IMG/VR virus record: IMGVR_UViG_3300013005_000037
Coordinates: 8,546 to 72,545 of that record
Direction: 5' to 3' (one strand)
DNA length: 64,000 nucleotides
Source: a virus
Lineage: Duplodnaviria > Caudoviricetes
Positions 2,719 to 52,067 of this stretch are shown here, piece by piece. The notes below the pieces were generated by a model. That model searched no databases. It saw only the letters and a list, made by a program, of their open reading frames with translations, and was not told where the DNA came from. A program made the position numbers and the translations under genes. The number at the start of each line of letters is the position of its first letter. Within the stretch, counting starts at the first letter, position 1.

Positions 2719-3258
2719 ATGGATAATTTAGAAATCTGGAAAGATATAAACGGTTACGAAGGATACTATCAAGTTTCAAATATTGGTAGAGTTAAGTCTT
2801 TAGCAAGGGTAATTGAATACAGAAAAGGTATTTATGGAAATAAAAAAGAAATTATTTTAAAAACATTTAAAGATGGAAAAGGGTATTTAAAATATAAACT
2901 TTGTAAAAATGGAAAAGAAAAATCAGTTATATCACATAGATTAGTTGCTATTGCTTTTTTACATAATTTAAATCAAAAGCCAGAAGTTAATCATATAAAC
3001 GGAATAAAAGATGATAACAGACTTGAAAATTTAGAATGGTGTACAAGTTCAGAAAACACAATACACGCTTTAAACCAAAAACTTAAAATACCACAAAAAG
3101 GTTCAGAACACGGAATGTCAAAATTAACGGAAGAAAAAGTTTTAGAAATAAGATTAATAGGAAGAACAAAAACTACAAAAGAACTTGGCGAAATATATAA
3201 TGTACATAGGACTTTAATTAGTCAAGTGTTATTAAATAAAATTTGGAATCACGTTTAA
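2719..3258 (+). mobile_element. NUMOD4-HNH homing endonuclease with a C-terminal HTH-like region
   Basis: EIWKDINGYEGYYQVSNIGRVKS (NUMOD4); HRLVA..VNHINGIKDDNRLENLEW (HNH). Confidence 0.9.
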
Positions 3259-3267
3259 GATAAAAAA

Positions 3268-6200
3268 ATGGCAAAAGGAAAAGTAAAATTAACCCAAAAA
3301 GGTGCTGAAAATTCTCCAGCTGGAGGTGTTGTTGTGGGAGAAAGAAATGGTCAAACTATGATTTATGACGATGCTTCTGTTGGCGGTTATTTTGTGGGGA
3401 AAACACATAGTAAAGGCGGAATTAAAATGGTTAACAAATCTAGTGGGCAACAACTAGAAGTTCAAGGCTCGGAGGTTATTATTACTGCTCCAGCGGTTGC
3501 AGACCAAACCAAAAACGAGTTTAATGGTAAAATGATGACTAACAGAGAAGTGTTATCTGCAATAAATGAAAAAGGTGGTGGCGTATCATTTGCTAAAGGT
3601 GGAGATATTCCTAAAAACATAAAACGTACTGGAGCAAGTTATAAGTATGGTGGTAAAACAATGACCGACCACGAAATATATAAAAAAATTACTGGAGGAC
3701 ATTTAGCCGAAGGAATGACACTTTCTAAAATTGCAAAAAAACATAATGTTTCTTTAAAGGATTTACAAAGACAAGTTGATATGGGTATGAAAGCTGAAAG
3801 CGAACATACTTCAAGCAAACGTGAGCAAATGAAAATTGTAAAAGACCATTTGTTTGAAAATCCAAAGTATTATTCTTTGCTAAAAAGAGCTGGATTAAAA
3901 CACGGTGGCGCAGTTCGTAGAAGTAGTCTTGTTAGAGATTCAAAAAAAGGAAACACACCAGCAAGGGATTTAAACAATTACAACGATGTTCTTGATATGG
4001 ATGCCGATGGTGTATATGGTGCTGAAACTGGATTGTATGCTGGTGGAGGGGTAACACCATACGATGCAAATATGGAAGGAGATAGTGCTGATATGATGTT
4101 TGCAAAAGGGGGTGCTACTGATGTTGTTGTAGATAACTGGAGTGATATACCAGATGAATTTAAAAACATAAGATTGCCAAAGCAAATTGATTGGAACGCA
4201 AACCCTAGCGATGATGGGTTAAATGAAATTGTAAAACCATTTTTAAGCAAAGAACCATTAAGACCAGCGATGGAAGGTATAAACTTTGATGATAATGGAA
4301 TAACAGTTACAAACGCACATATTTTATTAACTATACCTACGGTTGACCACGAGTTTCAAGGAATTTATAAAAAAGAAAAATTATCATCTAAATCTTTACA
4401 AGAAGTATTTCCAGATGGGGTTATAAAAATTGATGCAAAATTTCCAAATTACGAGCCAATAATTCCTAAACAATCAGAAATTAAAAAAGTTTTTTATGTT
4501 GATGTCTTAAAACTACTAACGTATTTTAAGGTAGCTAAAAACTATTCGGACAACACGCAAATTATATTTAAAATTGATGGTTCAGAAATGTCTGTTGCTC
4601 CAGATTTAATGATTAATTTTTTAACCTCCTTAATCAAGCTTGGTGGTAATCAATTTATGTATGTTAGCTTTCAAACAGATAAAAGAGCTTTAATTTTTAG
4701 CTACTATTCAACTTTTTCGTTAGGCAAAGATGTTATTGGATTAATAATGCCTTATGTTTTTGATAAAGGAGAAACTTACGGTGCAGTAAATGAAGAAAAA
4801 AAAGCAGAGTTAAATGTTTACTTTGACTTTGATTACAATGTAATTCGTAATGCTGATGATAGTATTGTTGATTTAACTCCAAAGCCTACAAAAACAAGAG
4901 CTAAAAGAACGCCAAAGACAACTCAAAGTCAAACCAGTACACAAAAAAGTAAAACCATTACCGATGAAGATGTTGAAATTAAAAAACTAATTTTAGAATT
5001 TATAAATCAAGCTGGTTGGATTTTAAAAAAAGAGATTAAGAAAAAAATAGGAGAAAGTTTTTATAAAGATTTTTATAAATCAGACCCGCCTACTATTTAT
5101 CGATTAACCGCTATTACCGCAGAAGGATTATATCCTACTGACGAAAAAACATTAAAGTTTTTAGAGAAAATTGGAATGTATGATGACTATGAAGAACCAG
5201 TAAAAGAAACTTCGTCTGAAAAATTTACTGCTGGAGAAATTGATATGTTTAACCAAATAGATGCAATTGTTAATAGTTACGGTATAACAGTTGTAAGCAC
5301 AATGTCTTGGAGTAAAGGCACATCAAAAACAACAGATTTTGATATAGTAAATACATTAACTGGAGATGTTTTTGAATTAAGAAAATATAATCTCTCTTTA
5401 GGTGTTCAAGACGATGATATTGAAAAAGAAAAGTCAAGAGAATTAATTAAAGATTATAATGAATGGAAAACATTAACGCCTACTAAAGATGTAGAAAAAC
5501 AAGAAAAAGTAGAAGTTTTTAAATTAATTGGTTTATCAAGTGATGGAACTGAATCCGTTGTTGGGATTTATAGTGCTACTGAATTATTGAAAAATATAAA
5601 ACGTTTAGAAAACACATTCCCATTTAGAGAAACATTCCCATTTCGTATTTACGATAATAATGGTAAAGAATATGGTTCAATAACTTTTGGTAAAGGAATT
5701 ACAACACTACCAGAACTTGAAATATCTATTATTGATAGTCCTATATTTGATGATTATAATTGGACAGAATTTGTAAATTATGATAAAGAAATTACTCCAT
5801 TTGAACAACCAAAACCGAGTAAAACCGAAAAACCAAAACGTAATTTTGAGTTAGAACGTAAATACTTGTCGCAAAGGATTTCAGATTTGGCAAAAGAGTT
5901 GGATTTAAAAAAACCAATACTATCAAATGAAGAAGTTGCTTTTTACCAAAGAGAGATTAATTCATTTATTTTAAAGTTAAGAAAACTTAACGATGCTGAA
6001 ATGAGTTTAAAATCTATTGAGGAAAGAGTAAGGGGTGTATATGAATTAAAGATTTCAAGTTTTGACAATCAGTACACGGAAACAGATATGACCTCTATAA
6101 ACGCCTTAAAATCGCAATTAACAGAAAAGGAATATTTTAATGTTAGAACGCCAGAGTTTAAATCGTTTTTTGGAGATTGGGAAACTGCGTATTTGAATGA

Positions 6201-6846
6201 TAGTTATGCTGGAGTATCGAAAGTTATAAATCCAGTTACAAAAGAACCTCAACCAGTATTTCACGGAACAAACGTTTTATTTGTAAATTGGAAAACATAC
6301 GACACTAACAACGCACATTATTTTGCAGTTAAAAGAGAGATGTCGGAGTTTTTTGCTACATCGTGGGAAACAAGAGCAGATAAAGCTGGGGTAGATTCTG
6401 AAATTCTTAAAAAGTTAAATCCAAATAGAGGTACTTTTTTATTAAGATGTTTTATTGATGTAAAGAACCCAATTGATTTTTCAAGATTTGGTGTTGAAAA
6501 ATATCCTATTAGAGAGTTTCTTACTTTTTTAAGGGTAAACTATAATATTGGAGATTTTGATTTCTGGACTAACATAACTTCTCATAGCGGATTCACACAA
6601 GATACAGAAGTGTATGCTTGGCAGATAATTAGATTGTGGCAGTCTTTTACAAAATATGTAAAAGTGTTCACAACTTATGATGGTTATATTTTTTACGAAT
6701 ACATACCAACAAAACCTTATGGTGGATTAGAAAACGCATCGCTTTCTTATTGTGCTTTTGATAGCAACCAGATTAAGTTTACAGATGCCTACGAGTTTAA
6801 CGCATTGTCTAATGATTCAAGATTTGATTTAGGAGGAATTTTATAA
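3268..6846 (+). CDS. polyvalent protein 1 (DUF5661-like, beta-clamp-like and ART-PolyVal-like domains, separated by GG motifs)
   Basis: EHT..KDHLFENPKYY; RPAMEGI..TNAHIL..KFPNYEPIIP; VRTPEFKSFFGDW..PVFHGT..KNP..YDG..AFDSNQIK; FAKGG, YKYGG, LKHGG, YAGGG, FAKGG, FDLGG. Confidence 0.75.
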   Translation: MAKGKVKLTQKGAENSPAGGVVVGERNGQTMIYDDASVGGYFVGKTHSKGGIKMVNKSSGQQLEVQGSEVIITAPAVADQTKNEFNGKMMTNREVLSAINEKGGGVSFAKGGDIPKNIKRTGASYKYGGKTMTDHEIYKKITGGHLAEGMTLSKIAKKHNVSLKDLQRQVDMGMKAESEHTSSKREQMKIVKDHLFENPKYYSLLKRAGLKHGGAVRRSSLVRDSKKGNTPARDLNNYNDVLDMDADGVYGAETGLYAGGGVTPYDANMEGDSADMMFAKGGATDVVVDNWSDIPDEFKNIRLPKQIDWNANPSDDGLNEIVKPFLSKEPLRPAMEGINFDDNGITVTNAHILLTIPTVDHEFQGIYKKEKLSSKSLQEVFPDGVIKIDAKFPNYEPIIPKQSEIKKVFYVDVLKLLTYFKVAKNYSDNTQIIFKIDGSEMSVAPDLMINFLTSLIKLGGNQFMYVSFQTDKRALIFSYYSTFSLGKDVIGLIMPYVFDKGETYGAVNEEKKAELNVYFDFDYNVIRNADDSIVDLTPKPTKTRAKRTPKTTQSQTSTQKSKTITDEDVEIKKLILEFINQAGWILKKEIKKKIGESFYKDFYKSDPPTIYRLTAITAEGLYPTDEKTLKFLEKIGMYDDYEEPVKETSSEKFTAGEIDMFNQIDAIVNSYGITVVSTMSWSKGTSKTTDFDIVNTLTGDVFELRKYNLSLGVQDDDIEKEKSRELIKDYNEWKTLTPTKDVEKQEKVEVFKLIGLSSDGTESVVGIYSATELLKNIKRLENTFPFRETFPFRIYDNNGKEYGSITFGKGITTLPELEISIIDSPIFDDYNWTEFVNYDKEITPFEQPKPSKTEKPKRNFELERKYLSQRISDLAKELDLKKPILSNEEVAFYQREINSFILKLRKLNDAEMSLKSIEERVRGVYELKISSFDNQYTETDMTSINALKSQLTEKEYFNVRTPEFKSFFGDWETAYLNDSYAGVSKVINPVTKEPQPVFHGTNVLFVNWKTYDTNNAHYFAVKREMSEFFATSWETRADKAGVDSEILKKLNPNRGTFLLRCFIDVKNPIDFSRFGVEKYPIREFLTFLRVNYNIGDFDFWTNITSHSGFTQDTEVYAWQIIRLWQSFTKYVKVFTTYDGYIFYEYIPTKPYGGLENASLSYCAFDSNQIKFTDAYEFNALSNDSRFDLGGIL

Positions 6847-6848
6847 AT

Positions 6849-7946
6849 ATGAATATTCAAGAAAAAATAAAAGAGTTAGGATTAGTTCCTTTGTTTCCAG
6901 ATTACTATTATTTTGATAGTAGTAAGTCAAGTGAAAATGATACTTTGAAAATAAAGTCTGATGAAGTTGATTTTCTTCAAAGAATGGTTTTTAAAAGAGA
7001 ATTAATTGGATGTACTTTATACACAAAACTGGAAATTTTTAACGATACTTTTGAAAGTGAAATGAACTTCATTATAAGGCAAAAAGGCGAAAAAGTAGAA
7101 GAAATATACAGAGAAGAATATGAAAATTTAAAATTTGACAATTTGCCAGATGTTTTGAATTTTTTTAATGAAAAATATGAAATTGTTGCCAAAGTTTTTA
7201 ATGAAATGCTACTTGAAAAATTGAAAGAGGAATTAGAGGAAGAAAAAAAGAAGCAAGAGGAAAAAGAACAACAAGAGCAAGAAAAGTCTGAACAAGAGCA
7301 AGGCGAAGAAGAAGGCGAAGAAGAAGGCGAAGGAGAAGGAGAAGGAGAAGGAGAAGGAGAAGGAGAAGGAGAAGGAGAAGGAGAAGGAGAAGGAGAAGGA
7401 GAAGGAGAAGGAGAAGGAGAGCCAAAGGAAATGTCGGCAAAAGATATTGAAAAATTATTAGAGGAATTAAGCAAAGACCAAAAAGGGAAATCCAAACAAG
7501 GTCAAAACGATAATTCTGGAGATGAAATTGATTTAGAAGATTTTTTAGATAAGGTTGAACAAGGAGAAGCGGAAAACGATTTTACTAAAGGCTACAAAGA
7601 CAAAGACCTTAAAGAAAAAATTGATGATGAAAAAGGTGGAGGGCAAGGAGAAGGAGAACCAGATGATATGGATTTTGATTTACCAGATTTTCCAGAGCCA
7701 CCAGCCAATTCTGATAAAAGGATTGAAGGAGTTTTAGATGCTATTGTAGATATGCTAGATACTGACAAAGAAGATATTAAAAGACAATTCCCAACGCAAA
7801 AATCGGCAAAATCTTTTGTAAGTTTGTTGTCGCCAAATGAATTAGATTTTATAACTACGCAAGTTGGCTTATCCGAAACTTTAAGTAGATTTGAAAAACA
7901 AAAATTAATAACAAGTAATTTCATAACAGAATTAGAAAACATATAA
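6849..7946 (+). CDS. acidic protein with a Gly-Glu linker (resembles the N-terminal half of CobT-like MoxR partners)
   Basis: Long E/G low-complexity tract; immediately upstream of the MoxR ATPase. Confidence 0.6.
   Translation: MNIQEKIKELGLVPLFPDYYYFDSSKSSENDTLKIKSDEVDFLQRMVFKRELIGCTLYTKLEIFNDTFESEMNFIIRQKGEKVEEIYREEYENLKFDNLPDVLNFFNEKYEIVAKVFNEMLLEKLKEELEEEKKKQEEKEQQEQEKSEQEQGEEEGEEEGEGEGEGEGEGEGEGEGEGEGEGEGEGEGEGEPKEMSAKDIEKLLEELSKDQKGKSKQGQNDNSGDEIDLEDFLDKVEQGEAENDFTKGYKDKDLKEKIDDEKGGGQGEGEPDDMDFDLPDFPEPPANSDKRIEGVLDAIVDMLDTDKEDIKRQFPTQKSAKSFVSLLSPNELDFITTQVGLSETLSRFEKQKLITSNFITELENI
7329..7418 (+). repeat. perfect (GAAGGA)15 in-frame microsatellite encoding poly(EG)
   Basis: 90-nt uninterrupted hexamer repeat. 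Confidence 0.9.
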
Positions 7947-7949
7947 ATT

Positions 7950-9317
7950 ATGACAAGAGAAGAATTAGAACTAGTAATTAGCGACACTACATTATCACAA
8001 GAAACAAGAGATGATGCTAAAGGTCAACTAGCAAAATTGGATGCCTTGCAAACTTCGTCTGGAGTACAAGGTATAAACAATGATATTTTATTTGCGGTAC
8101 GAGAGTTTAATCAATCAATCGACAAATTGGCAAAAGCTGGTGTTGATAAGAAGCAAGTTGAAGATATTGTAGATGATAAATTCAGAGATACTAAAATTGG
8201 TAAAAATAATTTAGATTCTACTGTTTTAGAACTTATCGGAAAAACACAAACTGTTCAAATTATTAACTGGCAGAATGTTGTTGTTAAAACTGGAGATGGC
8301 AAGAAAAGAAAGATTTTTGATTTAATGCTTTCTGATTTTGAAGCTGGTAACAATATTTACCTATACGGTGGTGCTGGAACTGGAAAAACCTTTATAGCAA
8401 AAGAAGTAGCAAACGCCTTAAACTACAAATTGATAACCTTGAACTGTAATCAATTTACTTCGCCTTTGGATATAGTTGGAGGGCAAACGATTGAGGGTTA
8501 TCAAGAGGGTAGATTAATTGATGCCTTTGGATATACTGATGCAAGGAAAGAAATGAATAAAAGAACTGGAAAATATTTTTCTGGTGCAGTTTTATTATTA
8601 GATGAATTACCAAAACTTGACCCGAATACTGCTGGGGTATTAAATGATGGTTTATCAAAAATTAAAGACCCTTCTGAAAGAACGCAAGATGGTTTAGAAA
8701 TACGACCAGAAATTACGAATGGTAGAGGAGAAATTATTACAAAAGGAAATGTGTTTGTTATAGCAACTGGAAACTCTTTGTTAAATGAAGCTGATGTAAA
8801 CTATGAAGCCAACTTTAAACAAGATTTATCGTTACAAGATAGGTTTGCTGGAAGCACATACGAATTGATTATTGACCCACAATACGAATTAGATAATTTG
8901 ATGTCTAATATTAAGATTGAAGATGAATTAGCAAATTTCACTTTTATTTTTAATTTCTTATTCAAATTAAGAACCGCAGTAGAGGACAATAATTTTTCAA
9001 GTAGAGCTTTTGTTTCTCAAAGGTTAATGATTTCTATGAGAGATACCTATATCGCTTTTAGACTTAACGAAAGACAAGGCGAAAAAAGAATAAAAAGTCC
9101 AAAAACTTTGCAAATTGCAGTTAAAACATTTTTAGATTTGTTTACAGAGCAACAAAGAAGTGTGTTGGAAGCTGATGTAAGAGTAGATGAATTTTTTGAT
9201 TTAGTAAATAATAAAAATTTAAAACCGTTAGATTCTTTAGATTCTCCAGAGGACAAAACGGAAGCAAATTTATTGATTAAAGCATTTGATTTAAAAAACG
9301 CAAACAAAATTAAATAA
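7950..9317 (+). CDS. MoxR/CobS-like AAA+ ATPase
   Basis: Walker A GGAGTGKT; Walker B LLLDE; IATGN; QDLSLQDRF. Confidence 0.88.
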   Translation: MTREELELVISDTTLSQETRDDAKGQLAKLDALQTSSGVQGINNDILFAVREFNQSIDKLAKAGVDKKQVEDIVDDKFRDTKIGKNNLDSTVLELIGKTQTVQIINWQNVVVKTGDGKKRKIFDLMLSDFEAGNNIYLYGGAGTGKTFIAKEVANALNYKLITLNCNQFTSPLDIVGGQTIEGYQEGRLIDAFGYTDARKEMNKRTGKYFSGAVLLLDELPKLDPNTAGVLNDGLSKIKDPSERTQDGLEIRPEITNGRGEIITKGNVFVIATGNSLLNEADVNYEANFKQDLSLQDRFAGSTYELIIDPQYELDNLMSNIKIEDELANFTFIFNFLFKLRTAVEDNNFSSRAFVSQRLMISMRDTYIAFRLNERQGEKRIKSPKTLQIAVKTFLDLFTEQQRSVLEADVRVDEFFDLVNNKNLKPLDSLDSPEDKTEANLLIKAFDLKNANKIK

Positions 9318-10891
9318 TGCCAAAAGCAAAAGATAATTATATAGTATTTGGATTTGACCCCTATAAGTTTATAGAGGAAGGATTGGATATTGTAAAAAAA
9401 GATGGTTTAAGGACAATTTATAGCGAAAGTTCAGTTACAAGCGGTATGAGTGTCAGTGGTAAAGATTACAATTGGCACGGATATAAAAGCGGTTCGTCAA
9501 AATCTTTTGCAGAGCAATTTGATGTTAATTCTGGATTAGGAAGTTTTTTAGACCAAGATTTATTAACAAAGGTAGAGCAAGTTTATTCCAATATAAATGC
9601 CAAGTTAGATTTAGGTGGAGATTTTAAAGCATCGAGAATTAGATTTACTGAAAAACCATTAGGAATATTTTCATTTGCACAAGCTAGTAAAGGTTTGATT
9701 AGACCAGTAGAATATTATTCAAAAGAGGAAAATAAAATAATACCTCCAGATGATGTTTTTAAGGGCGAATTTAAGGAGCTAGATTATTTTTATTATAAAC
9801 ACGATGGCAGAGAAGTTATTGTGGAAAGAAGGCAAGAAGGCACTACAAAGATAGCCGAGAGTTGCACCGATGTACTTTTAAAAGAAGATGAACAAAGCAA
9901 ATTGTTTTTGCCATACAATGCAGAAGGTAAAATTGTAAACGAGTGTAAAGGAAATAAATTGAGATATGCTACAACCACAAAAAAGGTTTATGCTTATCGA
10001 GAAAAAAAAGGTGGAGGTATTGCTCCTTATGTAGATTTATACATTTCTACTGGCGGTATAGGTAGTGTTAATCCAGAACAAATGATTATACGTTCATTGC
10101 CAAATATTCTATTATCAAGGATATTGGAAAAAGCTGGTGTAAGGGTTAGAATATTTGCTTATTGGTCAAATAGAGATTACAATAAAGACAGAGATTTTAA
10201 CACTATGTTTATGTTAAAAAACTATGGAGAAACTATTGATTTAAACAAGATTGCAGTATTTTCTTCTGATACACGTTTTTATAGATATTGGTTAGCAAAC
10301 TCAACTGTTGGTTGGTATAAATTTATGTGTGGAGATGCTAAAAGTGGTTTTGACACAACTGGTACGCTTGACCCAACAACGTTTATGAGAGATATTTTAC
10401 CAATGGTTAGAAACTATGTAAGCTATAAAATCAATGTAGGAGAATTTCCATCGCAAGTTGTAAATAAGAAATTGATGTTATTTGCAAATATGGATGTTGA
10501 TGGTAGCGACAAAATAGAAACTCCAGAAATTGAGAAAAAAGTAATTGAAAAGTTTTATTCTATTTTAGATTATATTCAAATGCAGTTATCCAATACTCCA
10601 AGAAAGGTGTTGCAAGACATTATTAAAAGAGAAAAGGATAATGGAAAGTCTGAAAGTGAAATTAAAAGATATATTAGAAGCTCAATTACCAATGTATTGT
10701 CGCCAACCAAAGAATTTCAAAAACAAAGTCCAGCAGAATTGAAAAAGATGTTGGATAGCGGAAGTTTGACTAAAAAGGAATACGAAGAAAAATTAAGAGT
10801 GGAGATTATGTTAGACACACCGAAAGATGCAGATGATATAATCGAGGAGAGAGAAAAATTATTAAATATATTAAATACTTTAATACTATAA
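9317..10891 (+). CDS. divergent vWA-like partner of the MoxR ATPase
   Basis: Coupled to the AAA gene; VDLYISTGG..ILEKAGVRVRIFAY pattern typical of phage AAA partners; no canonical DxSxS. Confidence 0.5.
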   Translation: MPKAKDNYIVFGFDPYKFIEEGLDIVKKDGLRTIYSESSVTSGMSVSGKDYNWHGYKSGSSKSFAEQFDVNSGLGSFLDQDLLTKVEQVYSNINAKLDLGGDFKASRIRFTEKPLGIFSFAQASKGLIRPVEYYSKEENKIIPPDDVFKGEFKELDYFYYKHDGREVIVERRQEGTTKIAESCTDVLLKEDEQSKLFLPYNAEGKIVNECKGNKLRYATTTKKVYAYREKKGGGIAPYVDLYISTGGIGSVNPEQMIIRSLPNILLSRILEKAGVRVRIFAYWSNRDYNKDRDFNTMFMLKNYGETIDLNKIAVFSSDTRFYRYWLANSTVGWYKFMCGDAKSGFDTTGTLDPTTFMRDILPMVRNYVSYKINVGEFPSQVVNKKLMLFANMDVDGSDKIETPEIEKKVIEKFYSILDYIQMQLSNTPRKVLQDIIKREKDNGKSESEIKRYIRSSITNVLSPTKEFQKQSPAELKKMLDSGSLTKKEYEEKLRVEIMLDTPKDADDIIEEREKLLNILNTLIL

Positions 10892-10894
10892 AAA

Positions 10895-12604
10895 ATGAAT
10901 TTAGATAGAATTAGTATAAAAATGGGTGGTGCAAATACATCGTATATGTCTTTAGCTAAAATTTCTGATTTTAGTAAGTTATATACAACTATCTTATTTA
11001 TAGAAAAATCAAGTCCTCAAAAAATAAATACTGGAGATAGTATTCAAGCGTTTAATTTTAAAAATATTGAACAATTTAAAGGATTAAGACCATTTAATGC
11101 TTATACGCAAGAACAATTGCTTTTTTTGTATAATCAATATGGTTCAGATTTTCTATATCAAACAAAGCTTCATTCTGGGGATTTAGTTAGGTATAATGGA
11201 TTGAAGTATGTAGTATTAGGTATTGTGGTAAACACATACGCACAATGGAATATGCCAACACCTTTGTTGTTTAATCCAACTAACGTAAATAACGATTACA
11301 AATCTTTATACGGAAGCAGATTAACCGAAGAACAAATTAACAATAAAATCAATGATAATTTCCAAGCTGGAAAATATGATGCTGATATGGTTATTCCTTT
11401 GGTAGATGCAAATGATTTTTCAGAATACATAACTGTAATAGAGCCAAGACCAACAAAGGAAGAAGTAGAATTAATGTTTGATTCAGTTAAAGCAGAAAAA
11501 GACCTTACAATTAAATCTCAAAAGGATGTTTTTATTGATACTATGTTGCGTTTGAGAGGTAATGAAATAAATAAAATCAAAGAGGTTAATGAAGATTTAT
11601 TTAAAGGTGTTCAAACTTTGTTATTGTCGGTAAATAAAGCGGTAAACGAGCAAATAGAAATGCTACCAGAACCAGCAGTTGAAAAACCAGCAAGAAAACC
11701 AAGAGAGAAAAAAGTTGTTGAAGAAGTAGAGCCAGTTGTGGAAATAGATTCAGATGAATTGCCAGATTTTATTGCTGAATTTACAATTGTAAAAGATTTG
11801 CCAGAGCCAATTATCAAATTAGCTCGTTTTAGAAGAAAAAAGCAAGGTAAAAGGGGAGATATTGATTTAGGACTTACATTAACAAGTGCTTTTAATTGGG
11901 ATGATAGTTCAGAAGGTTTAAATTTTTGGATGAAAATATCAAATAAAGGCGATTTAAGAGAGTTCAAAAAACTTTATGGTAACAAAGGAGAAAAGGTTGA
12001 TACATTAATTGCAAAAGAACCAAAAGTTACAACGCAAGAAGTTAAACGTGTAGATATAATTTTATATCCACCAGAGGGAGGGGTTTTAGAAATTAAAACA
12101 GATTGTTTGTATGAATTATTTGAGGTTAGTAGATTTGTTTTAACTAAATATAAAAGCACTACAAGAAAGTTTAATTTTCAAGTAATTACAGATTCTGGAA
12201 GTCATACAACAGAACTTTATTTTAGCGGAGATGATTCACAAGATGAATTTTTAAAATCATTAGTTGAACGGTATTATACTTTTGTAAAGCCAGAATTAAA
12301 CTGGAAAAATTTTGATGAAAGACAAGCTGATATTGATAAGATTAAATTAAACGAAGAAATTATAAATGATGCTTATCCAGAACCAAAACCAAAACCAGTT
12401 GAAAAACCAAAACCAGTAGCGGTAGAAAAACCAAAACCAGTTAAAATAGAAAAGCCAAAGCCAGTTAAGGTAGAGAAGCCAAAACCAGTTGTAGTTGAAA
12501 AGCCAAAACCAGTCAAGGTAGAAAAACCAAAACCAGTTAAAGTAACAAAACCAAAAGTGGAAGATGACCTTTCCTTTTTAGATGATTTAGACAATATATT
12601 TTAA
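10895..12604 (+). CDS. hypothetical protein with C-terminal KPKPV repeats
   Basis: 569 aa; about 8 (V/I)EKPKPV units at 12380-12555. Confidence 0.7.
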   Translation: MNLDRISIKMGGANTSYMSLAKISDFSKLYTTILFIEKSSPQKINTGDSIQAFNFKNIEQFKGLRPFNAYTQEQLLFLYNQYGSDFLYQTKLHSGDLVRYNGLKYVVLGIVVNTYAQWNMPTPLLFNPTNVNNDYKSLYGSRLTEEQINNKINDNFQAGKYDADMVIPLVDANDFSEYITVIEPRPTKEEVELMFDSVKAEKDLTIKSQKDVFIDTMLRLRGNEINKIKEVNEDLFKGVQTLLLSVNKAVNEQIEMLPEPAVEKPARKPREKKVVEEVEPVVEIDSDELPDFIAEFTIVKDLPEPIIKLARFRRKKQGKRGDIDLGLTLTSAFNWDDSSEGLNFWMKISNKGDLREFKKLYGNKGEKVDTLIAKEPKVTTQEVKRVDIILYPPEGGVLEIKTDCLYELFEVSRFVLTKYKSTTRKFNFQVITDSGSHTTELYFSGDDSQDEFLKSLVERYYTFVKPELNWKNFDERQADIDKIKLNEEIINDAYPEPKPKPVEKPKPVAVEKPKPVKIEKPKPVKVEKPKPVVVEKPKPVKVEKPKPVKVTKPKVEDDLSFLDDLDNIF

Positions 12605-12615
12605 AAACAAAGATT

Positions 12616-15381
12616 ATGACTATTAAACAAAAATTCAGTTCAATTGACCAAAGCAAATTAACTGCCGACCAAAAATCATTTTTAGATAAAATTAAAAATG
12701 TAACAAAAAACTTTTCCGATGCTGAAATGAATAAAAAGGTGGAACAACCTTTGGATAACTTTATTTCAAAAGCAAAAGAAAAAATGCCAGAAGCAATTAA
12801 GTCTGCTCCAGTAAAAAAAACTGCTAGTGCTAAACCAAGTCAAACCAGAAAACCAAAACGTACTGCAATGTCTTTGGCTAAAGAAATTCGTAAAGAAGGC
12901 GAAAGTTGGTCGGATGCAAGAGCAAGAGCAAGTAAAATGATGAAAGAAGATAGTAAGGATTTAAGCAAAACTGTTGAAACCGAACTTGACAAATTAAGTA
13001 AACTTGTAAAAAGTGCAAAAACAAGAGCTAAACTTGCTGGTATTTCTGGTACTGATATTAAAAGAGATGCGGTAAGAAGGGCAAAACCAAGAGGTGCAAG
13101 AAAGGTAACTCACTCTGGAGAAACTTCTAATCAATATGGAACGTTTAGTAATAAGCTAGGTAGAAAATACTACGAGAGTAGAGATAGGCACTCTGATAGA
13201 CTTGCTCCAAATTATCCAAAAAATGCTCCTTTGTTAGAAAATGGTGCGTATTTGACAGACCCTACATTTGGTAGTTTTCAAAATCAAGTTTTAGCCGAAG
13301 GTGGAGATATTAATGCCTTTACTTTAAGAATGGTAAAAAGCAATGGTATGCAACCAGCGGAAGTTTTGAAAGAAGATACAAATGTAAAATATGCTGGTGG
13401 TGGAATATTTGGAAGTAGCAGACCAAAGTCAGCTTTAATGAGAGATAGAAAAAATGTAAATCATTCAGAAGATTATGAAGTAAGATATTCTAAACCAAGA
13501 CCAAGTAGAAGTGGTTATAGCGGTAATAGAAAATTTGCTGGAGGAGGTAGAGTAGAATCTTTAACTAAAGAATTGCATAAACTTCAAAGAGAGCTTAATA
13601 GCAGTCGTTTAAGTACTTATATAGAAGGAGATGTTTCACAAGAAGCTATTAATAGAGAAAATGAAAGAGCAGTAAAACTTGCTCGTTTTAATGAAGTTTT
13701 GAAAGAATTAAGAGAATCAGATGCAAAATTTGCATTAGGTGGAACTGTTGTTTCAGATTTAGCTGGACACACTGCTGGTGGCGATGGAGGTTTAAATGCT
13801 GGTATGCCTTTAGATGGTTTTAGCAATACTTCTTATACTGGATTAGTTGGAGAAACTGGTGCGATGTCAAGTGGAGAAATGTTTATGGCTGGTGGTTCTG
13901 TTAATCCAAAATTTGATTTAACTGGTTTTAAAATGTTGAGAATGTTTAAAACTTTAATTGAAGCAAAAAATTATGCCGATGAATCAAGAAAAAAATTTCC
14001 TAATGAAAAAACAATAGTAATTGATACTGGTAAAGACACCTATCCTTATGAAGTTTACGGAACTGAATCTTTTAATAAAGGCAAATTTGGTAACAGAGTT
14101 TATGCAAATGGTGGTGGACTTCCAGAATTTTCACAACAATCTTATATGATTACAGAAGCATTAGGAAACCCAGCACAACATTTTAAAGTTGGAGGTACAA
14201 TAAAAAATCAATATGATGGAAGAACGCCAGAAGATATTTGGGATAGTTTAAGTATTCAACAAAGAAAGCATTTTTTATTAGACCATTACTATATTAATGA
14301 AGAAGAATTTGAGCAACTTCAATATAAGCGTTTAGAATCAGAAGATAAAGAAATTATTGATTATTACGCTAATAGAACTTGGAAAAAATTATCTGGAGAT
14401 GTTAGAAAAGCATTTACTTCTCACGTTAAAGAAGGTCAATATAATAAAGGCGGTGCATTAACAAACGAAAGATTACACGTTAACCACGATGAAGATTACG
14501 AAGTAAGATACGCTAAACCAAGACCAAGTAGAAAAGGTTACAAAGGAGTAAGAAAATTTATGGCTGGAGGAATGAACGAAAACACACCAAGAATTTACGT
14601 TGCTGATTTAGAAGCCTACAATAGCGGAAGATTAGTTGGAGAATGGTTGGATTTAGCTGACTATAACGATGCTGATGAATTAATGGATGCTATTCAAAAT
14701 TTATTAGATGGTTGGGGAGTTGAGGAATATGCTATTCACGATGTTGAGTATGTACCAAGCAGTATGTATTCAGAATATATGGGCGAAAGAGATTTTAAAC
14801 AATTATATGAAATGATGGATTTAGCAAAAGATAACAATTTGCCATTAGAAGTAGTTCAAGAAATTGTTAGTCAATATAGCGAAAGTGCAGTTGATGAATT
14901 TCAAGGGAAATACGATAGCGCAACTGATTTTGCTGAACAATTAGTAGATGATTTAGGTGGTATTCAAAACTTTAATGATTTTGAGTATTATTTAGATATT
15001 TATGAAACTGATAGAAGATTATTAGCGCAAGAAATGGCTGATAGCTATGTAGATGATATTGTAGGCGAAGATGGCGGAAATAGAATAATTGAGGAAGCTG
15101 GTTTAAATGTTGACGAGTACGAAGATGCAAGTGAGGAAACTAAAGAAGAATTGATTGATTTGGCAAGAAGTATGGTTTATGATGAATATTACGATACTTG
15201 GTACGAAGGATTAAATGACCCTTATAACTTTTTAGTAGAAGAACAAGGAATGTATGATGCTGAAAGTTTTGCCAACGCAAGTTTTGTAAGAGTTGATTAT
15301 GATAAATTAGCAGAAGCATTAGAGCAAGATTATACTATGATTAGCTACGATGGAGATGTTTATGTGTTTAATATTAGATAA
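12616..15381 (+). CDS. polyvalent protein 2 with about 10 GG motifs and a C-terminal ArdA-like antirestriction domain
   Basis: LAEGG, YAGGG, FAGGG, FALGG, FMAGG x2, YANGG, FKVGG, YNKGG; RIYVADLEAYNSGRLVGEW..EEYAIHD plus a strongly acidic tail. Confidence 0.78.
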   Translation: MTIKQKFSSIDQSKLTADQKSFLDKIKNVTKNFSDAEMNKKVEQPLDNFISKAKEKMPEAIKSAPVKKTASAKPSQTRKPKRTAMSLAKEIRKEGESWSDARARASKMMKEDSKDLSKTVETELDKLSKLVKSAKTRAKLAGISGTDIKRDAVRRAKPRGARKVTHSGETSNQYGTFSNKLGRKYYESRDRHSDRLAPNYPKNAPLLENGAYLTDPTFGSFQNQVLAEGGDINAFTLRMVKSNGMQPAEVLKEDTNVKYAGGGIFGSSRPKSALMRDRKNVNHSEDYEVRYSKPRPSRSGYSGNRKFAGGGRVESLTKELHKLQRELNSSRLSTYIEGDVSQEAINRENERAVKLARFNEVLKELRESDAKFALGGTVVSDLAGHTAGGDGGLNAGMPLDGFSNTSYTGLVGETGAMSSGEMFMAGGSVNPKFDLTGFKMLRMFKTLIEAKNYADESRKKFPNEKTIVIDTGKDTYPYEVYGTESFNKGKFGNRVYANGGGLPEFSQQSYMITEALGNPAQHFKVGGTIKNQYDGRTPEDIWDSLSIQQRKHFLLDHYYINEEEFEQLQYKRLESEDKEIIDYYANRTWKKLSGDVRKAFTSHVKEGQYNKGGALTNERLHVNHDEDYEVRYAKPRPSRKGYKGVRKFMAGGMNENTPRIYVADLEAYNSGRLVGEWLDLADYNDADELMDAIQNLLDGWGVEEYAIHDVEYVPSSMYSEYMGERDFKQLYEMMDLAKDNNLPLEVVQEIVSQYSESAVDEFQGKYDSATDFAEQLVDDLGGIQNFNDFEYYLDIYETDRRLLAQEMADSYVDDIVGEDGGNRIIEEAGLNVDEYEDASEETKEELIDLARSMVYDEYYDTWYEGLNDPYNFLVEEQGMYDAESFANASFVRVDYDKLAEALEQDYTMISYDGDVYVFNIR
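14572..15381 (+). other. ardA: ArdA-like DNA-mimic domain within polyvalent protein 2
   Basis: ArdA N-terminal signature (RIYVADL.AYN.G.L.G.W); very high D/E content; begins directly after FMAGG. Confidence 0.75.
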
Positions 15382-15389
15382 TTAAAAGT

Positions 15390-16592
15390 ATGAAAGAGAT
15401 TAAAAAAAGTGCCAGTTTTACAAGTAAGCAAAAAGGTAAAGATGTAAAATTCAATATTGATTTGAATTATAGTCCAGAATACGATAGTTTTATTATTAAA
15501 ATAAAAGAGGGCGAAGGATTTATGGCTTATAGTTCAAATATTGAACGTATGCCTTTAAAGGTAATTCAAAAGCTAAATGAAATGCTGGAAGAAGTTTTGA
15601 TTAAAGCTGGTTCTGAAACAGAAATGGAAAAACAAAAAATGTCAAATGGTGGCGATTTCCAAGCTGGGGTTTATGCTAAAGGCGGTTCGCTTCAAGCACA
15701 CGGAATTGAAATAGGAGATACATTTGTAAAAACTATTTCTGGAAACATTCAGAAAATAAAAGATAAAAACGGAAAAATTGTTTACGTTGATTTATCTACT
15801 GGAGAAAGAGATTCACAACCACCACTACCTTTTGAAAATGGTGGTGGAATTGGTATGGAAGAAGATAAAGATACTTGGCAAAATTTATTAGAGCAATTTG
15901 GATTCAAAAAGGGTCGAAGTAGGTATGGTTTAGATATGTATTATAAGAATGGTTATACTGCTTCTGTTGATAAAAATTTAAGAAACGTTGATTTAATGTT
16001 TGAAGATAATGTTCTTTACAAAGGATATAGTATTCAAGGTTTATTATATACGTTAGAAAATCAATTTGGAAAAACCAAAATGGCTACTGGAGGTGCGTTA
16101 GTAGGAAACCAAAAGCGTATTGATATGAACAAAAATGGTAAAATTGATGCAGAGGATTTTAAACTTTTGCGTTCTAGTATGAATGGTGCGTGGAGAAACG
16201 AAAGGAAACACGTTAATCATAATGAAGATTACGAAGTACGTTATGCCAGAAAAAAACCAAGCCGAACTGGTTACAAAGGTAAAAGGAAATTTGAAGGTGG
16301 CGGTGGAATATCAAACTTTGAAAGATTTTCAAACGTAGTAGCCAAGAATTACGAAGGAAAGTCAGTTAAACCAAAGTACCAAAAAGAGTATGGCAAAACG
16401 TATAGTAAGTCAGAAGCTAAACAAGTTGGTAATAGGGTAGCTGGAAAAGTTAAAATGATGAAAAAAGCTGAATCTGGTGCAGAAGTAAAAAAAGGCAATA
16501 GAGGTGGAGTTATGGTTTTAGCTAAAAAAATTCGTAAGGATGGAGAGAGCTGGAAGGATGCTTTGAAAAGAGCTGGACAACAACTGAAATAA
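15390..16592 (+). CDS. polyvalent/core protein 3, basic, with GG motifs
   Basis: MSNGG, YAKGG, FENGG, MATGG, FEGGG; shares the HVNH-EDYEVRY and AKxIRKxGESW modules with 12616..15381. Confidence 0.7.
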   Translation: MKEIKKSASFTSKQKGKDVKFNIDLNYSPEYDSFIIKIKEGEGFMAYSSNIERMPLKVIQKLNEMLEEVLIKAGSETEMEKQKMSNGGDFQAGVYAKGGSLQAHGIEIGDTFVKTISGNIQKIKDKNGKIVYVDLSTGERDSQPPLPFENGGGIGMEEDKDTWQNLLEQFGFKKGRSRYGLDMYYKNGYTASVDKNLRNVDLMFEDNVLYKGYSIQGLLYTLENQFGKTKMATGGALVGNQKRIDMNKNGKIDAEDFKLLRSSMNGAWRNERKHVNHNEDYEVRYARKKPSRTGYKGKRKFEGGGGISNFERFSNVVAKNYEGKSVKPKYQKEYGKTYSKSEAKQVGNRVAGKVKMMKKAESGAEVKKGNRGGVMVLAKKIRKDGESWKDALKRAGQQLK

Positions 16593-28419: not shown

Positions 28420-29115
28420 ATGTCAAATGTTCGTAAATATTTAGCCAATGCACAAAGAAATGCAATGGAATCTTTCTCAAACGCTGATGGTTTTATCGAT
28501 AACGATTTATCGTTCACTGGAGAGGACTTTTTCAACGCTGGAGGAATGGGGGGCGGAAACGTTCAAACTTCACAACCATACATATTAGATATTACATCTA
28601 CTAGTGGTTCAGCAGTTACAAATTTTGAAGTATTAGGTTCTTACCAATACATCAACAACGCTGGTTTCCAAGCAAATGGAGATTTAGTAATTGGTTCAAT
28701 CACAATTAGCTCTGGTATTTCAGATGTTAACTATCGTGAAATGTTATACCAATTTATGAATAATCCTTATTCAGTTGGTTTAACTTACATTCAGTCTGCA
28801 ACTGCAAACCAAGTGTTAGAAACTCTTTCTGTTAACACAAGAGATTCAAATGGTAATTTAGCGCAAAAAACACTTGTGCCTACAATTGACCCATACCAAC
28901 AACAAACTAACATTATCGCTATGAAGTATGCGTATAGAATTGATGGTTTCACTAAAATTATCATTCGTCAAGTATTGGCAAATGCTACTGTGAAATTATA
29001 CTTCTACCCAGCAGACAACATAAACCTTGCAAGAGCTTTAGGTGGTAATTCAGTAAGCAGACAATTCGGTACACCTCCAGTTACTAATGGTCAAACTATT
29101 AGAATTAAAGGATAA
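28420..29115 (+). CDS. candidate major capsid protein (single jelly-roll-like)
   Basis: Beta-rich core of about 150 aa; visibly rich in TTC/AAC/ATC/TAC codons; own AT-rich upstream region and strong terminator; near the A32 ATPase; paralogue at 51164. Confidence 0.55.
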   Translation: MSNVRKYLANAQRNAMESFSNADGFIDNDLSFTGEDFFNAGGMGGGNVQTSQPYILDITSTSGSAVTNFEVLGSYQYINNAGFQANGDLVIGSITISSGISDVNYREMLYQFMNNPYSVGLTYIQSATANQVLETLSVNTRDSNGNLAQKTLVPTIDPYQQQTNIIAMKYAYRIDGFTKIIIRQVLANATVKLYFYPADNINLARALGGNSVSRQFGTPPVTNGQTIRIKG

Positions 29116-31608: not shown

Positions 31609-32394
31609 ATGAATTTTAGAATACAGACTAGATACGATGAAATGTGTTTGTGCGTAAAAATATCGTGTTCAACCCCAACGGTTGTAAGGATTAAAATTTA
31701 CGATGAAGAAAAGCCTAAAATTGTATTTACCGATAGGTATAAAACAGTTTCAAGTGCAGAAACATTTTACATTAGATTACCTATAACATCAAAATCGGTT
31801 ATTCTTTCCGTATATGACGATAAAAAAGGTAATACACCAAAAGAGCAAGAGAAAAACATAAGCGTAGTGTCTATTGATAAAACGCCTTTAGAAAAAAGAA
31901 TGGATGTCGTAGATATTCAAAACAAAAGCGTAAAGCATTTTGTAGATTTTGCACAAAGATTTTGTTTTAATGCGCCATATTTGGAAACTGGAAAAACATA
32001 TCAGTCAGACAACGGAGAGTTTATGATTGAGTATTTGCCACAAATAATAAATCAAGATGGTAGAGTTTTGACGACACCAGCAAGGATTTCAAGAGTTACT
32101 GGCAGAATACAAGTTTCTAAAAAACAATTTGACGATTATACAGTTCCTATGCGTTTTGCTATTCTTTGCCACGAGTTTAGTCATTTTTACGTTAATGATA
32201 ATATGGATGATGAATCAGAAGCCGACATCAATGGTTTGTTGATTTATTTAGGATTAGGATACCCACGAATTGAAGGATACCAAGCGTTTCTGGAAGTATT
32301 TAAAGATGCTCCTAACCAAAACAATAAAAAGCGTTTTGATAGAATTGATAATTTTATTAAAAACTTTGAGAAAAATAAAATGGTAATAAGATAA
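31609..32394 (+). CDS. zincin-like metallopeptidase
   Basis: ILCHEFSH (HExxH) followed by ESEAD. Confidence 0.68.
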   Translation: MNFRIQTRYDEMCLCVKISCSTPTVVRIKIYDEEKPKIVFTDRYKTVSSAETFYIRLPITSKSVILSVYDDKKGNTPKEQEKNISVVSIDKTPLEKRMDVVDIQNKSVKHFVDFAQRFCFNAPYLETGKTYQSDNGEFMIEYLPQIINQDGRVLTTPARISRVTGRIQVSKKQFDDYTVPMRFAILCHEFSHFYVNDNMDDESEADINGLLIYLGLGYPRIEGYQAFLEVFKDAPNQNNKKRFDRIDNFIKNFEKNKMVIR

Positions 32395-38834: not shown

Positions 38835-41800
38835 ATGGGAAATGTAACCAAATCACAACAAAATAATATTACAAGTCCAAACGGTAACAGTTTGGCAGTT
38901 TTTGTCGAGGGAACTACTGGAGTAATGAAAGTGAAAGATGTGATGGGGAACATTCAACCATTATCTGATTTTGTTAGTGGTGGTGGTGGTGGTTCTAGTC
39001 CTTTTAAATATGCTACTTGTAACCCTACTGGAATTGTGCCTTGTTTGGGTAATAATTCTGCTTTTGGTGGTTATTCAACGGTTGCTGGTGGTCAAGTTAA
39101 TTCTGCTACTGGTTACATTTCTTTTATTGGAGGGGGTCAAATTAATTCTGCTAGTGGTAATAGTTCAACAATTAGTGGTGGTTATTGTAATACTGCTTCT
39201 AATTGTGGCTCAACAATTGGAGGAGGAGGTGTCAACACTGCTTCTGGAATTAGTTCAACAGTCGGAGGTGGTATATTAAATACTGCTTCTGCTCTTTCTT
39301 CAACAATTAGCGGCGGTCAAGAGAATACCGCATCTGCTCCAACTTCAACAATAGGAGGTGGTTTTTATAATACTGCTTCTAATTATGGTGCGACTGTTGG
39401 TGGAGGTTATTGTAATACTGCTTCTGGAGCTTGTTCAACAGTTGGTGGCGGTCAAGGTAATAGTGCTTCTGATTGCTATTCAACAGTAGGTGGTGGTGGG
39501 TATAATACTGCTTCTAATGATTATTCAACAGTTAGTGGTGGTTTTTTAAATACTGCTTCTGGAGCTAGTGCAACAATTGGAGGGGGTAGTGATAATACCG
39601 TTTCTGGATTTTATTCAACAATTGGTGGTGGTCGATTTAATACTACTTCTGGGTGTGCTTCAACAATTGGAGGAGGTCTTTGTAATACTGCTTCTGCAAG
39701 TTATGCAACAGTTGGTGGTGGTCAAGGTAATAGTGCTAATTATAGTCATTCAACAGTTGGTGGTGGTCTTAATAATACTGCTTCTCAATATACTTCAACA
39801 ATTGGTGGCGGTTATTGTAATATTTCATCAAATTCGTATTCAGTAGTTGGTGGGGGTAGTTGTAATATTGCTTCTGGAAGTGGCTCAACAATTAGTGGTG
39901 GTTGTGCTAATATTTCATCAAATGCCTATTCATCGGTTGGGGGTGGTCGTCAAAATACTGCTAGTGGTACTCGTTCAACAATTGGAGGTGGATATATTAA
40001 CATTGCTTCTGGAAGTATTTCAACAGTTGGAGGGGGGTGTTGTAACAATGCTTCTGATTGCTATTCAACAGTAGGTGGTGGTGTTTTTAATACTGCTTCT
40101 TGTTATTTTTCAACAATAGGAGGAGGTGCTAATAATACTGCTTCTGGAGCTAGTGCAACAATTGGAGGGGGTCAAGATAATACCGTTTCTGGATTTTATT
40201 CAACAATTGGTGGTGGTCGATTTAATACTACTTCTGCAACATATTCAACAGTTGGAGCTGGTAATTGCAACATAACAAATTCAAGATATTCTTTTATTGG
40301 TGGAGGTCAAAGAAATGTAATTCAATCGCCAACAGACGAATGTTGCTCTTTTGGTGCTACAATTGGAGGAGGAATAGGAAATAATACTAATGGTGGTTAT
40401 TTTGATAATATTACTGGGAATTTAGGTGGTTCAATCACTTGTTGTAATGCTGGTAGATTATCTACAATTGGAGGTGGTTTGAGAAACTGCGCTACTGGTT
40501 ATCTTTCAACAGTTGGAGGTGGTCAATGTAATACTGCTTCTTGCACTTTTTCAACAATTGGTGGTGGTTTTACAAATATTGCTTCTAGTTTTTATTCAAC
40601 AATTAGCGGTGGTAAAATTAATATTGCTTCGGGAGATAATTCAGCAATTGGGGGTGGTTCAAATAATACTGCGGGTGGATTAGTAGCTACAATTGGAGGG
40701 GGTAATTTAAACACTGCTAGTGGTGTTAATTCATTTATTGGTGGTGGTAGCCAAAATACTACTTCTGGTAGTTATTCAACAACTACTGGCGGATACTGTA
40801 ATATTACTTCTGGAGATTATTCCATAATAGGAGGGGGTACTTATAATATTGTATCTGGGAATACATCTACAATAGGTGGAGGTAGTACTAATATTGCTTG
40901 TGGAATTTCTTCTACAATTGGGGGTGGAAACAGTAACACAACAAATTGCAACGCTTCTACAATTGGAGGAGGTTTTTGCAATACTGCTAACTGTGATTCA
41001 TCAACTATTGCTGGAGGAGCTTATAATTTATCTTGTAAAAACGCATCATTTGTTGGGGGTGGATGTTTTAATTCATCAACTGGCGACAGAACTGTTATTG
41101 GAGGAGGATTTTGCAATACTGCTAGTGGTAATTGTTCAACAATTGGTGGTGGTTGTAGTAACATTGCTTCTGGTTATCATACTGCTATTCTTGGAGGGTG
41201 TAATAATGATACTTGTGGTTTTGCAAACTCAATGATTATAGGTTCTAATTTATGTGCTACCCAAACGTGTACTACATTTATGAATTGTGCATCGGTAGAT
41301 AATTTGACACAAGGTTCTTTGGTTTGTGTAGGAGCTAATAAAGTTCTTGAAGATTCATTATTAAATGTAAGTACAATTAATAGTGGATTATTTGCTCAAA
41401 CAACAGATAGTGCGCCAGTAACCGCAACTGCGGTTGAAACTTCTATAATAGGCGTTGGAGTTGGTACATTAAGCGTTCCAGCAAATGCGTTTACTATCGG
41501 AAATAGTTTTGTTGCAAGATTAGATGGTGTTATTTCGGCAGTAGGAACTGCTACTTTAGATATAAAAATAAAAACATTATCTGGTGCGTTACTTGCTGAT
41601 ACTGGAGCAATTGCTATGGATGCAACAACCGCAAAATCTTGGACTTTAGATATAGAATTCACAGTAAGAACTTTAGGCGGAGTTGGAGTAGCTTCTATTT
41701 CTTCTGGTGGATTATTTTCGTATATTAAAAATTCTGGACTTAATTTTGAAGGATATGTATTAAGTACTGTTAACTCAACTACTTTTGATACTACAATCAA

Positions 41801-41891: not shown

Positions 41892-41902
41892 AAAATAAAA
41901 TA

Positions 41903-44515: not shown

Positions 44516-44527
44516 AAATAAAATATT

Positions 44528-51164: not shown

Positions 51165-51613
51165 TGCCTATATTCGCCCCAACCATAACCAATTATCCAA
51201 ATGGAGTTGTAACTGTCGCAAGTAACGATGCAACCCCTTATAGTTCTATTATTCAATCGATGGGTAGCTTTATATATGGAGTAAACGAAATGTATTTAAA
51301 AGCGAATGATAATAGTCAAATACTTCAAAGCTATCAATTTAAAAGGTATGATGTAAACGGTACATTAGAATCGTTTGTAGATGCTCCGACAATAGACCCT
51401 TATCAATTTCAATCTTCATTATTTTTTAAATTAACAAAAGACAATGTTGTACTTGATGGAAGAACAAGTTTAGATTTTAGTTTATTGCCTAGTGAATCTT
51501 TGTATATGATTATTTATACCACGCAACTAGCAAATAGAGATTTAGTTCCAAGAACAAATTTTTTTAATAACGATTTTTTCAATTTATTTAATGATTACAA
51601 AGACTGCATATAA
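51164..51613 (+). CDS. minor capsid-like paralogue of 28420
   Basis: Aligns with the core of 28420: Y..I/M....Y.V...Y....Q....L....D.NG....PTIDPYQ.Q......DG.T. Confidence 0.65.
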   Translation: MPIFAPTITNYPNGVVTVASNDATPYSSIIQSMGSFIYGVNEMYLKANDNSQILQSYQFKRYDVNGTLESFVDAPTIDPYQFQSSLFFKLTKDNVVLDGRTSLDFSLLPSESLYMIIYTTQLANRDLVPRTNFFNNDFFNLFNDYKDCI

Positions 51614-52067
51614 TAAAGCACCGATTAATAAAATAAAAACTGAAAATAGAAATTGTACTATTTCAAAACTTGTAACTGGAGATTTAATTAAAACAAAGGG
51701 TCAAAAATATCCTTTGATTTATCATTATGGAATAGTAGAGAAAAATTTAGATGGTCTTTTTATCATACACAACCACCCAGACAAAATAAACTCAAATGGT
51801 GGTAATACAGTAAGAGAACCTTTAGAGAAATGGATTAAAAATAGAGATGTAGTTTCGGTTGAACAAACTGATTTAAAACTAGAAGATATTGAAAAAATAT
51901 ATCAAACATTAAAAATGCACAAATACGATTTTATAAATTTCAATTGTGAGCATTTTGTAAATTTTGCAAAAGACAAAAGTTATGTAAGTCCGCAAGTGTT
52001 GAGGTGGACATCAGTAGCTTTAATAGGATTAGCTATTTATTTTTTATTAAAAAACAAAAGAATATGA
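51591..52067 (+). CDS. LRAT/PLAAT-like (permuted NlpC/P60, H-box/NC) enzyme with a C-terminal TM
   Basis: HYGI..IIH..YDFINFNCEHF; TM at the C-terminus. Confidence 0.8.
   Translation: MITKTAYNKAPINKIKTENRNCTISKLVTGDLIKTKGQKYPLIYHYGIVEKNLDGLFIIHNHPDKINSNGGNTVREPLEKWIKNRDVVSVEQTDLKLEDIEKIYQTLKMHKYDFINFNCEHFVNFAKDKSYVSPQVLRWTSVALIGLAIYFLLKNKRI

Follow-up and report, generated by a model that had tools for sequence, protein, structure and literature searches.

Three polyvalent proteins in a lake virus genome

The stretch of viral DNA considered here, a window of 64,000 nucleotides, corresponds to bases 8546–72545 of the complete 72,545-bp IMG/VR virus record IMGVR_UViG_3300013005_000037. Positions 3268–16592 of this window contain seven open reading frames (ORFs), all on the + strand, three of which encode the polyvalent effector proteins P0001, P0002 and P0003. 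These proteins are built from swappable cassettes and, in the regions that consist of small modules, a seven-residue junction with a Gly-Gly core closes each cassette. The source of the polyvalent ORFs is an uncultured linear 72.5-kb lake virus. Its genome ends in perfect 123-bp inverted terminal repeats (window positions 63878–64000; genome bases 1–123), its G+C content is ~30%, and near-identical DNA is contained in lake-water metagenomes of 24 studies. The three genes and their motif-rich parts are as follows.

3268..6846, + strand: polyvalent protein 1 (P0001), 1192 amino acids; Gly-Gly-rich N-terminal domain (residues 1–140), DUF5661 (154–207), beta-clamp-like domain (285–537), more folded domains, ART-like domain (860–1186)
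3589..4113, + strand: motif-rich part of P0001 with five junction motifs (FAKGG108, YKYGG125, LKHGG210, YAGGG257, FAKGG278)
12616..15381, + strand: polyvalent protein 2 (P0002), 921 amino acids; small modules, then ArdA (659–921)
13291..14571, + strand: motif-rich part of P0002 with nine junction motifs (residues 226, 259, 307, 372, 423, 496, 523, 609 and 648)
15390..16592, + strand: polyvalent protein 3 (P0003), 400 amino acids, with five junction motifs (residues 84, 95, 148, 231 and 301)

A sixth motif of P0001, FDLGG1186, lies at nt 6823–6837, and the C-terminus of this protein reads ...SRFDLGGIL*. A first-pass annotation, made from the sequence alone, had described three giant proteins with about 20 such motifs. 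The motifs number 21, but P0003, with its 400 residues, is no giant. All pentapeptides listed in that annotation are present at the ORFs named, including MADGG (20522) and LKLGG (59191).

Polyvalent proteins have been defined as large proteins of phages and conjugative elements that combine effector and anti-restriction domains (Iyer, Burroughs, Anand, de Souza and Aravind 2017, PMC5512222). It was proposed that they enter the host together with the DNA and are then proteolysed into units, usually by a fused zincin MPTase domain (PMC5512222). In the proteins studied here, several unrelated effector or anti-restriction domains occur per polypeptide (ArdA, DUF5661, a beta-clamp-like domain and further folds). 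The architecture varies among relatives: P0001 has 2640 of them among 50%-identity cluster representatives, with mosaic matches, and more distant relatives, whose genes follow the same order, have the signature domains ART-PolyVal, NUDIX, Zeta-toxin, Eco57I-type methylase and SNF2. The class itself is already known; the new elements are the punctuation motif and, possibly, an unrecognised enzyme that reads it. A text search of Iyer et al. 2017 (PMC5512222) found no description of a Gly-Gly punctuation motif.

P0001 begins with a domain of ~140 residues (3268–3700) that contains seven Gly-Gly dipeptides, mostly followed by x-hydrophobic. No known family matches this domain, and its model is of low confidence. 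Among relatives it behaves as a single mobile unit, either N- or C-terminal, in hundreds of polyvalent proteins that reach up to 2495 amino acids; it may be an anchoring or oligomerising domain. The beta-clamp-like identity of residues 285–537 was found with Foldseek (E 1e-6) and VIA (Z 14.6, root-mean-square deviation 3.2 Å, 173 aligned residues). Wide structure searches with the P0001 and P0002 models returned only this beta-clamp match, generic helical hairpins and coiled-coil matches. An ART domain had been placed before FDLGG in the first-pass annotation; the C-terminal domain at 860–1186 does end there, but Pfam did not confirm that it is an ART: PF18760 (ART-PolyVal) has no match anywhere in the genome. 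On visual inspection, the stretches FHGT, HYFAV and YEYI look like those of an H-Y-E ART.

In 50,697 phage records searched with megablast and tblastn, the motif-rich regions have no relative. Only isolated domains matched, each without the motif: ArdA in actinophages, and DUF5661 in cyanophages and a Vibrio phage. Outside polyvalent proteins, Vibrio phage VPs20 has DUF5661 joined to DUF2213, and in a cyanophage the domain lies between terminase genes; a literature search turned up no paper on this domain. Its occurrence in head-module proteins of tailed phages lends weak support to an association with the virion, and packaging of P0001, P0002 and P0003 into the virion is plausible.

A conserved junction at module borders

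The motif [FYML]xxGG occurs 21 times in P0001, P0002 and P0003 together, against 3.07±1.7 times in composition-preserving shuffles, and 0 of 5000 shuffles reached 21. The narrower [FY]xxGG is found 16 times, compared with 1.5 in shuffles. The enrichment implied by the first-pass annotation is thus evident. The motif logo spans seven positions, [FY]-[AEK]-x-G-G-x-[IVLT], with information at P5, P4, P2, P1 and P2'. Relatives contain 10–21 motifs apiece, and across 150 diverse cluster representatives the density of [FY]xxGG is 4.9 per 1000 amino acids where 0.53 is expected, a ~10-fold enrichment. It could be argued that such a motif is a chance or low-complexity by-product of Gly-rich linkers. 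The linkers are Gly-rich, and three Gly-rich fibre-like ORFs elsewhere in the window (38835–46830) also score, whereas the remaining window has scattered single hits only. The shuffles, the enrichment in the 150 relatives and the position-specific conservation described below refute this explanation, to which we assign a negligible probability.

In an alignment of 45 P0002 homologues (52–86% identical), the columns of the aromatic residue and of both glycines are ~100% kept, whereas the 20 positions flanking the motifs are only 33–78% identical to the P0002 query. For the first 660 residues of P0002, over 480 relatives were found. The first-pass annotation would have been refuted by a lack of motif conservation at domain borders among homologues; this refutation fails, as the motif is conserved at borders in hundreds of them. 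The codons vary from one motif copy to the next, which indicates that selection acts on the peptide and not on the DNA. One internally repeated module of 45 amino acids accounts for only three of the 21 copies; the motif is otherwise found on non-homologous modules. Purifying selection on the junction motif is strong at the level of the protein. The idea of a recombination hotspot was rejected, as the motif codons differ and DNA identity is not what is conserved.

Similar sequences were seen in two other proteins of the window. The ORF at 59191–60057 (− strand, 288 amino acids) ends in ...KLKLGGKI*, like the C-terminal ...FDLGGIL* of P0001. A capsid-candidate protein (28420–29115) reads FFNAGG-MGGG after a 40-residue N-terminal segment.

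The motif positions coincide with the borders of homology blocks. In P0002, a motif is no more than 10 residues away from 88% of the 820 internal phmmer homology-block borders, where 21% would be expected; in P0001, the corresponding values are 29.5% and 8.9%. Relative to the last Gly, block starts pile up at −6 to −1 and block ends at 0 to +5, which means that homology blocks run from motif to motif. In related viruses, cassettes are gained, lost or placed in another order at the junction. The cassettes comprise the ArdA DNA mimic, the beta-clamp-like, DUF5661 and ART-like domains, conserved basic peptides and small folds without an assigned function. Clustering of the motif is limited to the small-module regions, which are residues 1–290 in P0001, 226–652 in P0002 and 84–305 in P0003.

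The same borders are seen in predicted structures. The AlphaFold2 model of P0002, made from the 45-row alignment, contains confident folds at residues 311–373, 430–496, 538–605 and 659–921 (ArdA), and every one of them is bracketed by motifs in adjoining linkers with a predicted local distance difference test score below 50. The Pfam match to ArdA covers residues 660–795, its fold starts at 659, and FMAGG precedes it at 648–652. In the model of P0001, DUF5661 (150–210) ends at LKHGG, the beta-clamp-like domain (285–537) begins after FAKGG at 278–282, and the C-terminal domain (860–1186) ends at FDLGG; there, too, the bracketing motifs sit in linkers with a score below 50.

The breakpoints of cassette insertions, deletions and reorderings fall inside the motif, which would also be expected of a neutral universal joint, that is, a flexible Gly-Gly hinge with hydrophobic caps that permits in-frame recombination of cassettes without misfolding and needs no trans-acting reader. 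The motif travels with its upstream domain: the ART-like domain always ends in DIR[FY]xxGG, whether it is terminal or followed by further modules. One copy of the motif is, moreover, modelled as a hairpin turn. We nevertheless consider a neutral joint improbable, as the differing codons leave little DNA homology to drive recombination, and a hinge leaves unexplained why the aromatic residue at P5 and the hydrophobic residue at P2' are ~100% kept across homologues that are 35–90% identical. In this explanation, the joint would be kept because lineages that possess it evolve new architectures faster, but evolvability by itself exerts only weak selection.

The modules themselves include several peptides that recur. 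P0002 and P0003 have in common a basic module of 45 amino acids (HVNHxEDYEVRY..RKFxGGG) and the sequence LAKxIRKxGESWxDA. The former, a module of 45–50 amino acids with the full pattern HVNHxEDYEVRYxxxxPSRxGYxGxRKFxGGG, is present in three copies in the two proteins (13417–13569, 14452–14592 and 16173–16325). It is strongly conserved despite predicted disorder and may be a nucleic-acid-binding peptide. Several other pieces between motifs are likewise highly conserved though predicted to be disordered, for example GLVGETGAMSSGEMF. In P0002, the N-terminal part is basic (net charge +29) and the ArdA domain at 659–921 is acidic (net charge −55).

Possible readers of the junction

As the junction is exposed, stereotyped, strictly conserved and located exactly at fold borders, it is best understood as an element recognised by a factor that acts in trans, with a protease as the most economical reader. 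An endopeptidase would then recognise the junction and cut at or beside the Gly-Gly, and cutting would free the modules after synthesis or delivery. For example, the acidic ArdA could be released from its basic carrier. A protease would explain why a carrier with a net charge of +29 is fused to a DNA mimic with a net charge of −55, and why mini-domains and peptides of 30–90 residues are strung together. It would also match the motif-directed processing of internal proteins in T4 and phiKZ-like phages. The processing proposed for the polyvalent class (PMC5512222) is matched as well, and the interpretation of the motifs as processing sites in the first-pass annotation is reasonable. That the polyvalent cassettes are joined by a junction that is cut by a protease is a possibility that we favour, with a confidence slightly short of even.

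An uncut junction might instead be a short docking motif, repeated for avidity, in polyvalent proteins that act at full length. Candidate binding partners come in part from the neighbourhood of the genes.

6849..12604, + strand: four ORFs between the polyvalent genes, of 365, 455, 524 and 569 amino acids

The 455-residue protein (7950–9317) is a MoxR/AAA_5 ATPase. The 365-residue protein (6849–7946) has a long acidic (GE)n tract, and the 569-residue protein (10895–12604) has EKPKPV repeats at its end. The ORFs of 365, 524 and 569 amino acids lack HExxH, have few Cys residues and show no obvious protease signature. A more distant relative repeats the gene order of polyvalent protein, ~370-residue protein, AAA_5 ATPase and ~540-residue protein.

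The conserved synteny with the AAA_5 ATPase is in line with docking, and so is the whole motif, kept through P2' at an extreme C-terminus with no module behind it. Clamp partners often use C-terminal peptide motifs. The docking partner, common to all copies, would be a receptor for packaging or ejection, the MoxR-type AAA+ ATPase encoded nearby or the clamp-like domain of the protein itself; no partner was identified. Some known polyvalent proteins, N4 vRNAP, ArdC and TraC1 among them, are delivered without being processed (PMC5512222). The genome yielded no Gly-Gly-specific protease. However, docking does not require that the motif lies exactly at fold borders instead of anywhere in the linkers, and in a full-length protein the basic carrier would be expected to interfere in cis with the acidic ArdA DNA mimic fused to it. 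Docking is therefore a less likely, although serious, alternative.

For the protease, too, there are several points that weigh on the other side. The first-pass annotation had placed the motifs at domain borders. This holds for ArdA after FMAGG, for the clamp-like domain after FAKGG and for the small modules, but the large-domain borders of P0001 at ~537, 650, 745 and 850 have no motif, and FAKGG108 and YKYGG125 lie inside one conserved N-terminal domain of ~140 amino acids, the latter being modelled as a beta-hairpin turn. Some pieces between motifs are just 11–21 amino acids long. P0001 and 69 of 150 relatives have the motif of the ART-like domain only 2–4 residues before the stop, where a cut would separate nothing. 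The enzymes that might be expected were not recovered either. A clan CE (Ulp1/adenain) protease, sought on the suggestion of the first-pass annotation, has no candidate at E<=10 for PF02902 (C48) or PF00770 (C5) in the complete 72,545-bp genome, although remote homologues may escape hidden Markov models. The fused MPTase zincin, the commonest hub domain of polyvalent proteins but not a universal one, is absent at the same threshold in the whole genome (MPTase-PolyVal, PF18818). No head protease was found in Pfam and PHROG scans of ORFs of at least 80 amino acids, where divergent forms are possible. Given the conserved C-terminal copy, the in-domain copies and the fact that no clear Gly-Gly protease emerged, the protease interpretation calls for caution.

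If a protease reads the junction, it may be encoded by the virus, and two ORFs may be put forward, albeit weakly; a host protease is also possible.

31609..32394, + strand: candidate processing enzyme 1, zincin-like protein P0274, 261 amino acids, with an HEFxH...E.E.D pattern
51591..52067, + strand: candidate processing enzyme 2, permuted NlpC/P60-type thiol enzyme P0273, 158 amino acids, matched by Pfam to PPPDE/C97

P0274 has 944 relatives, belongs to no Pfam family and has a beta-rich N-terminal half. Across 121 homologues, residues H188, E189, H192, E202, E204 and D206 do not vary, a pattern that fits a zincin of a separate, unnamed family. Comparison of P0274 and of the P-loop ORF at 25948 with PDB sequences gave nothing useful.

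P0273 resembles the PPPDE/DeSI (C97) enzymes in its permuted papain-like His...Cys core and passes the Pfam cut-off for PF05903, with 30.3 bits where the gathering cut-off is 29.2. Members of the C97 family, DeSI-1 for example, cleave behind the Gly-Gly of SUMO or ubiquitin (PMC10318531). In P0273, which has 226 close relatives, H45, H60 and C119 (the latter in an NCEHF motif) are invariant, and the C-terminus carries a transmembrane segment as a membrane anchor. The second invariant His (H60), the NCEHF motif and the C-terminal anchor are unlike C97 and like the H-box/NC lipid enzymes of the LRAT/PLAAT type. The nearest Atlas clusters are LRAT, and a P0273 profile found only a non-significant match to HRASLS2, at NCEHF, among PDB sequences. 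From these features, P0273 looks more LRAT/PLAAT-like than PPPDE-like, which counts against the protease interpretation. A complex prediction of P0273 residues 1–136 with P0002 residues 395–440 scored 0.00, which is not evidence either way. The P0273 gene adjoins the gene for an NHL/beta-propeller protein (52064–53251).

Elsewhere in the genome, Pfam and PHROG matches include a cell-wall M15 peptidase, SLT, GH108, RecT and nucleases. Essentially all ORFs of at least 80 amino acids were covered by these scans, and no major capsid, portal, terminase or tail families were found. Polymerase families, including protein-primed DNA polymerase, were not recognised by Pfam or PHROGs despite the inverted terminal repeats. 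Three genes resemble NUMOD4/HNH_3 homing endonucleases, one at 2719–3258 and two among 53346–63681 or the full record. The three Gly-rich proteins at 38835–46830, presumably fibres, contain 71–93 GG dipeptides apiece, in DNA with a local G+C content of 35–37%.

Implications and known processing systems

Polyvalent proteins are regarded as the first weapons that a phage or plasmid brings into the cell. To the question of how a single chain provides many activities, a recognisable, conserved junction in thousands of polyvalent proteins offers a concrete and testable answer. The junctions also provide a map that splits unannotated giants into mini-domains, many of them 30–90 amino acids long and of unknown function, which is useful for the mining of anti-defence proteins. 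If the reader is indeed a PPPDE/LRAT-type enzyme or a new zincin, it would represent a new family of viral maturation proteases.

P0001, P0002 and P0003 resemble the polyvalent class as first delineated in being large multi-effector proteins of very variable architecture with ArdA and ART-like domains, and with NUDIX, Zeta toxin and methylase domains in their relatives. They differ from it in lacking a fused MPTase and in that many of their modules are mini-domains of 30–90 amino acids or conserved peptides predicted to be disordered.

In some phages, packaged internal proteins are processed at a stereotyped motif: T4 gp21 cuts at L/I-x-E, and phiKZ-like gp175 at S/A/G-x-E. P1 DarA/DdrB is a further case of processing by a head protease (PMC5512222). 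Like these systems, the lake virus has a short stereotyped motif at the would-be cut sites of cargo precursors. Unlike them, its motif is aromatic-x-x-G-G, and Pfam and PHROGs recognise no prohead protease, capsid, portal or terminase in its genome. A literature search found no phage precedent for the cleavage of a polyprotein at Gly-Gly. As motif-directed processing of packaged proteins is already known in phages such as T4 and phiKZ, the analogy with nucleocytoplasmic large DNA viruses and adenoviruses drawn in the first-pass annotation is not needed.

Adenain cleaves at the consensus (M/I/L)xGG-X, with a hydrophobic residue at P4. The junction shares with the substrates of clan CE maturation (adenain, Ulp1 and pS273R of African swine fever virus, ASFV, which acts on pp220/pp62) a Gly-Gly core preceded by a hydrophobic residue. 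The adenain-like GG-X site that had been suggested does not hold in its geometry, as the junction has its aromatic residue at P5 instead of a hydrophobic residue at P4, [AEK] at P4 and an additional hydrophobic residue at P2', and no C48/C5 homologue was found. Like adenovirus and ASFV, the lake virus has a linear genome with inverted terminal repeats, and basic peptides and larger domains would be freed from one precursor. A much bolder scenario, which we regard as a long shot, is that this abundant freshwater lineage, with its inverted terminal repeats and without recognisable tailed-phage hallmarks, has a Gly-Gly processing code of its own. Its reader would be a PPPDE/DeSI-like peptidase anchored at a virion vertex, or a new zincin, that releases mini-effectors, DNA-binding peptides and ArdA, and the system would then be an independent bacterial counterpart of maturation by adenain and ASFV pS273R.

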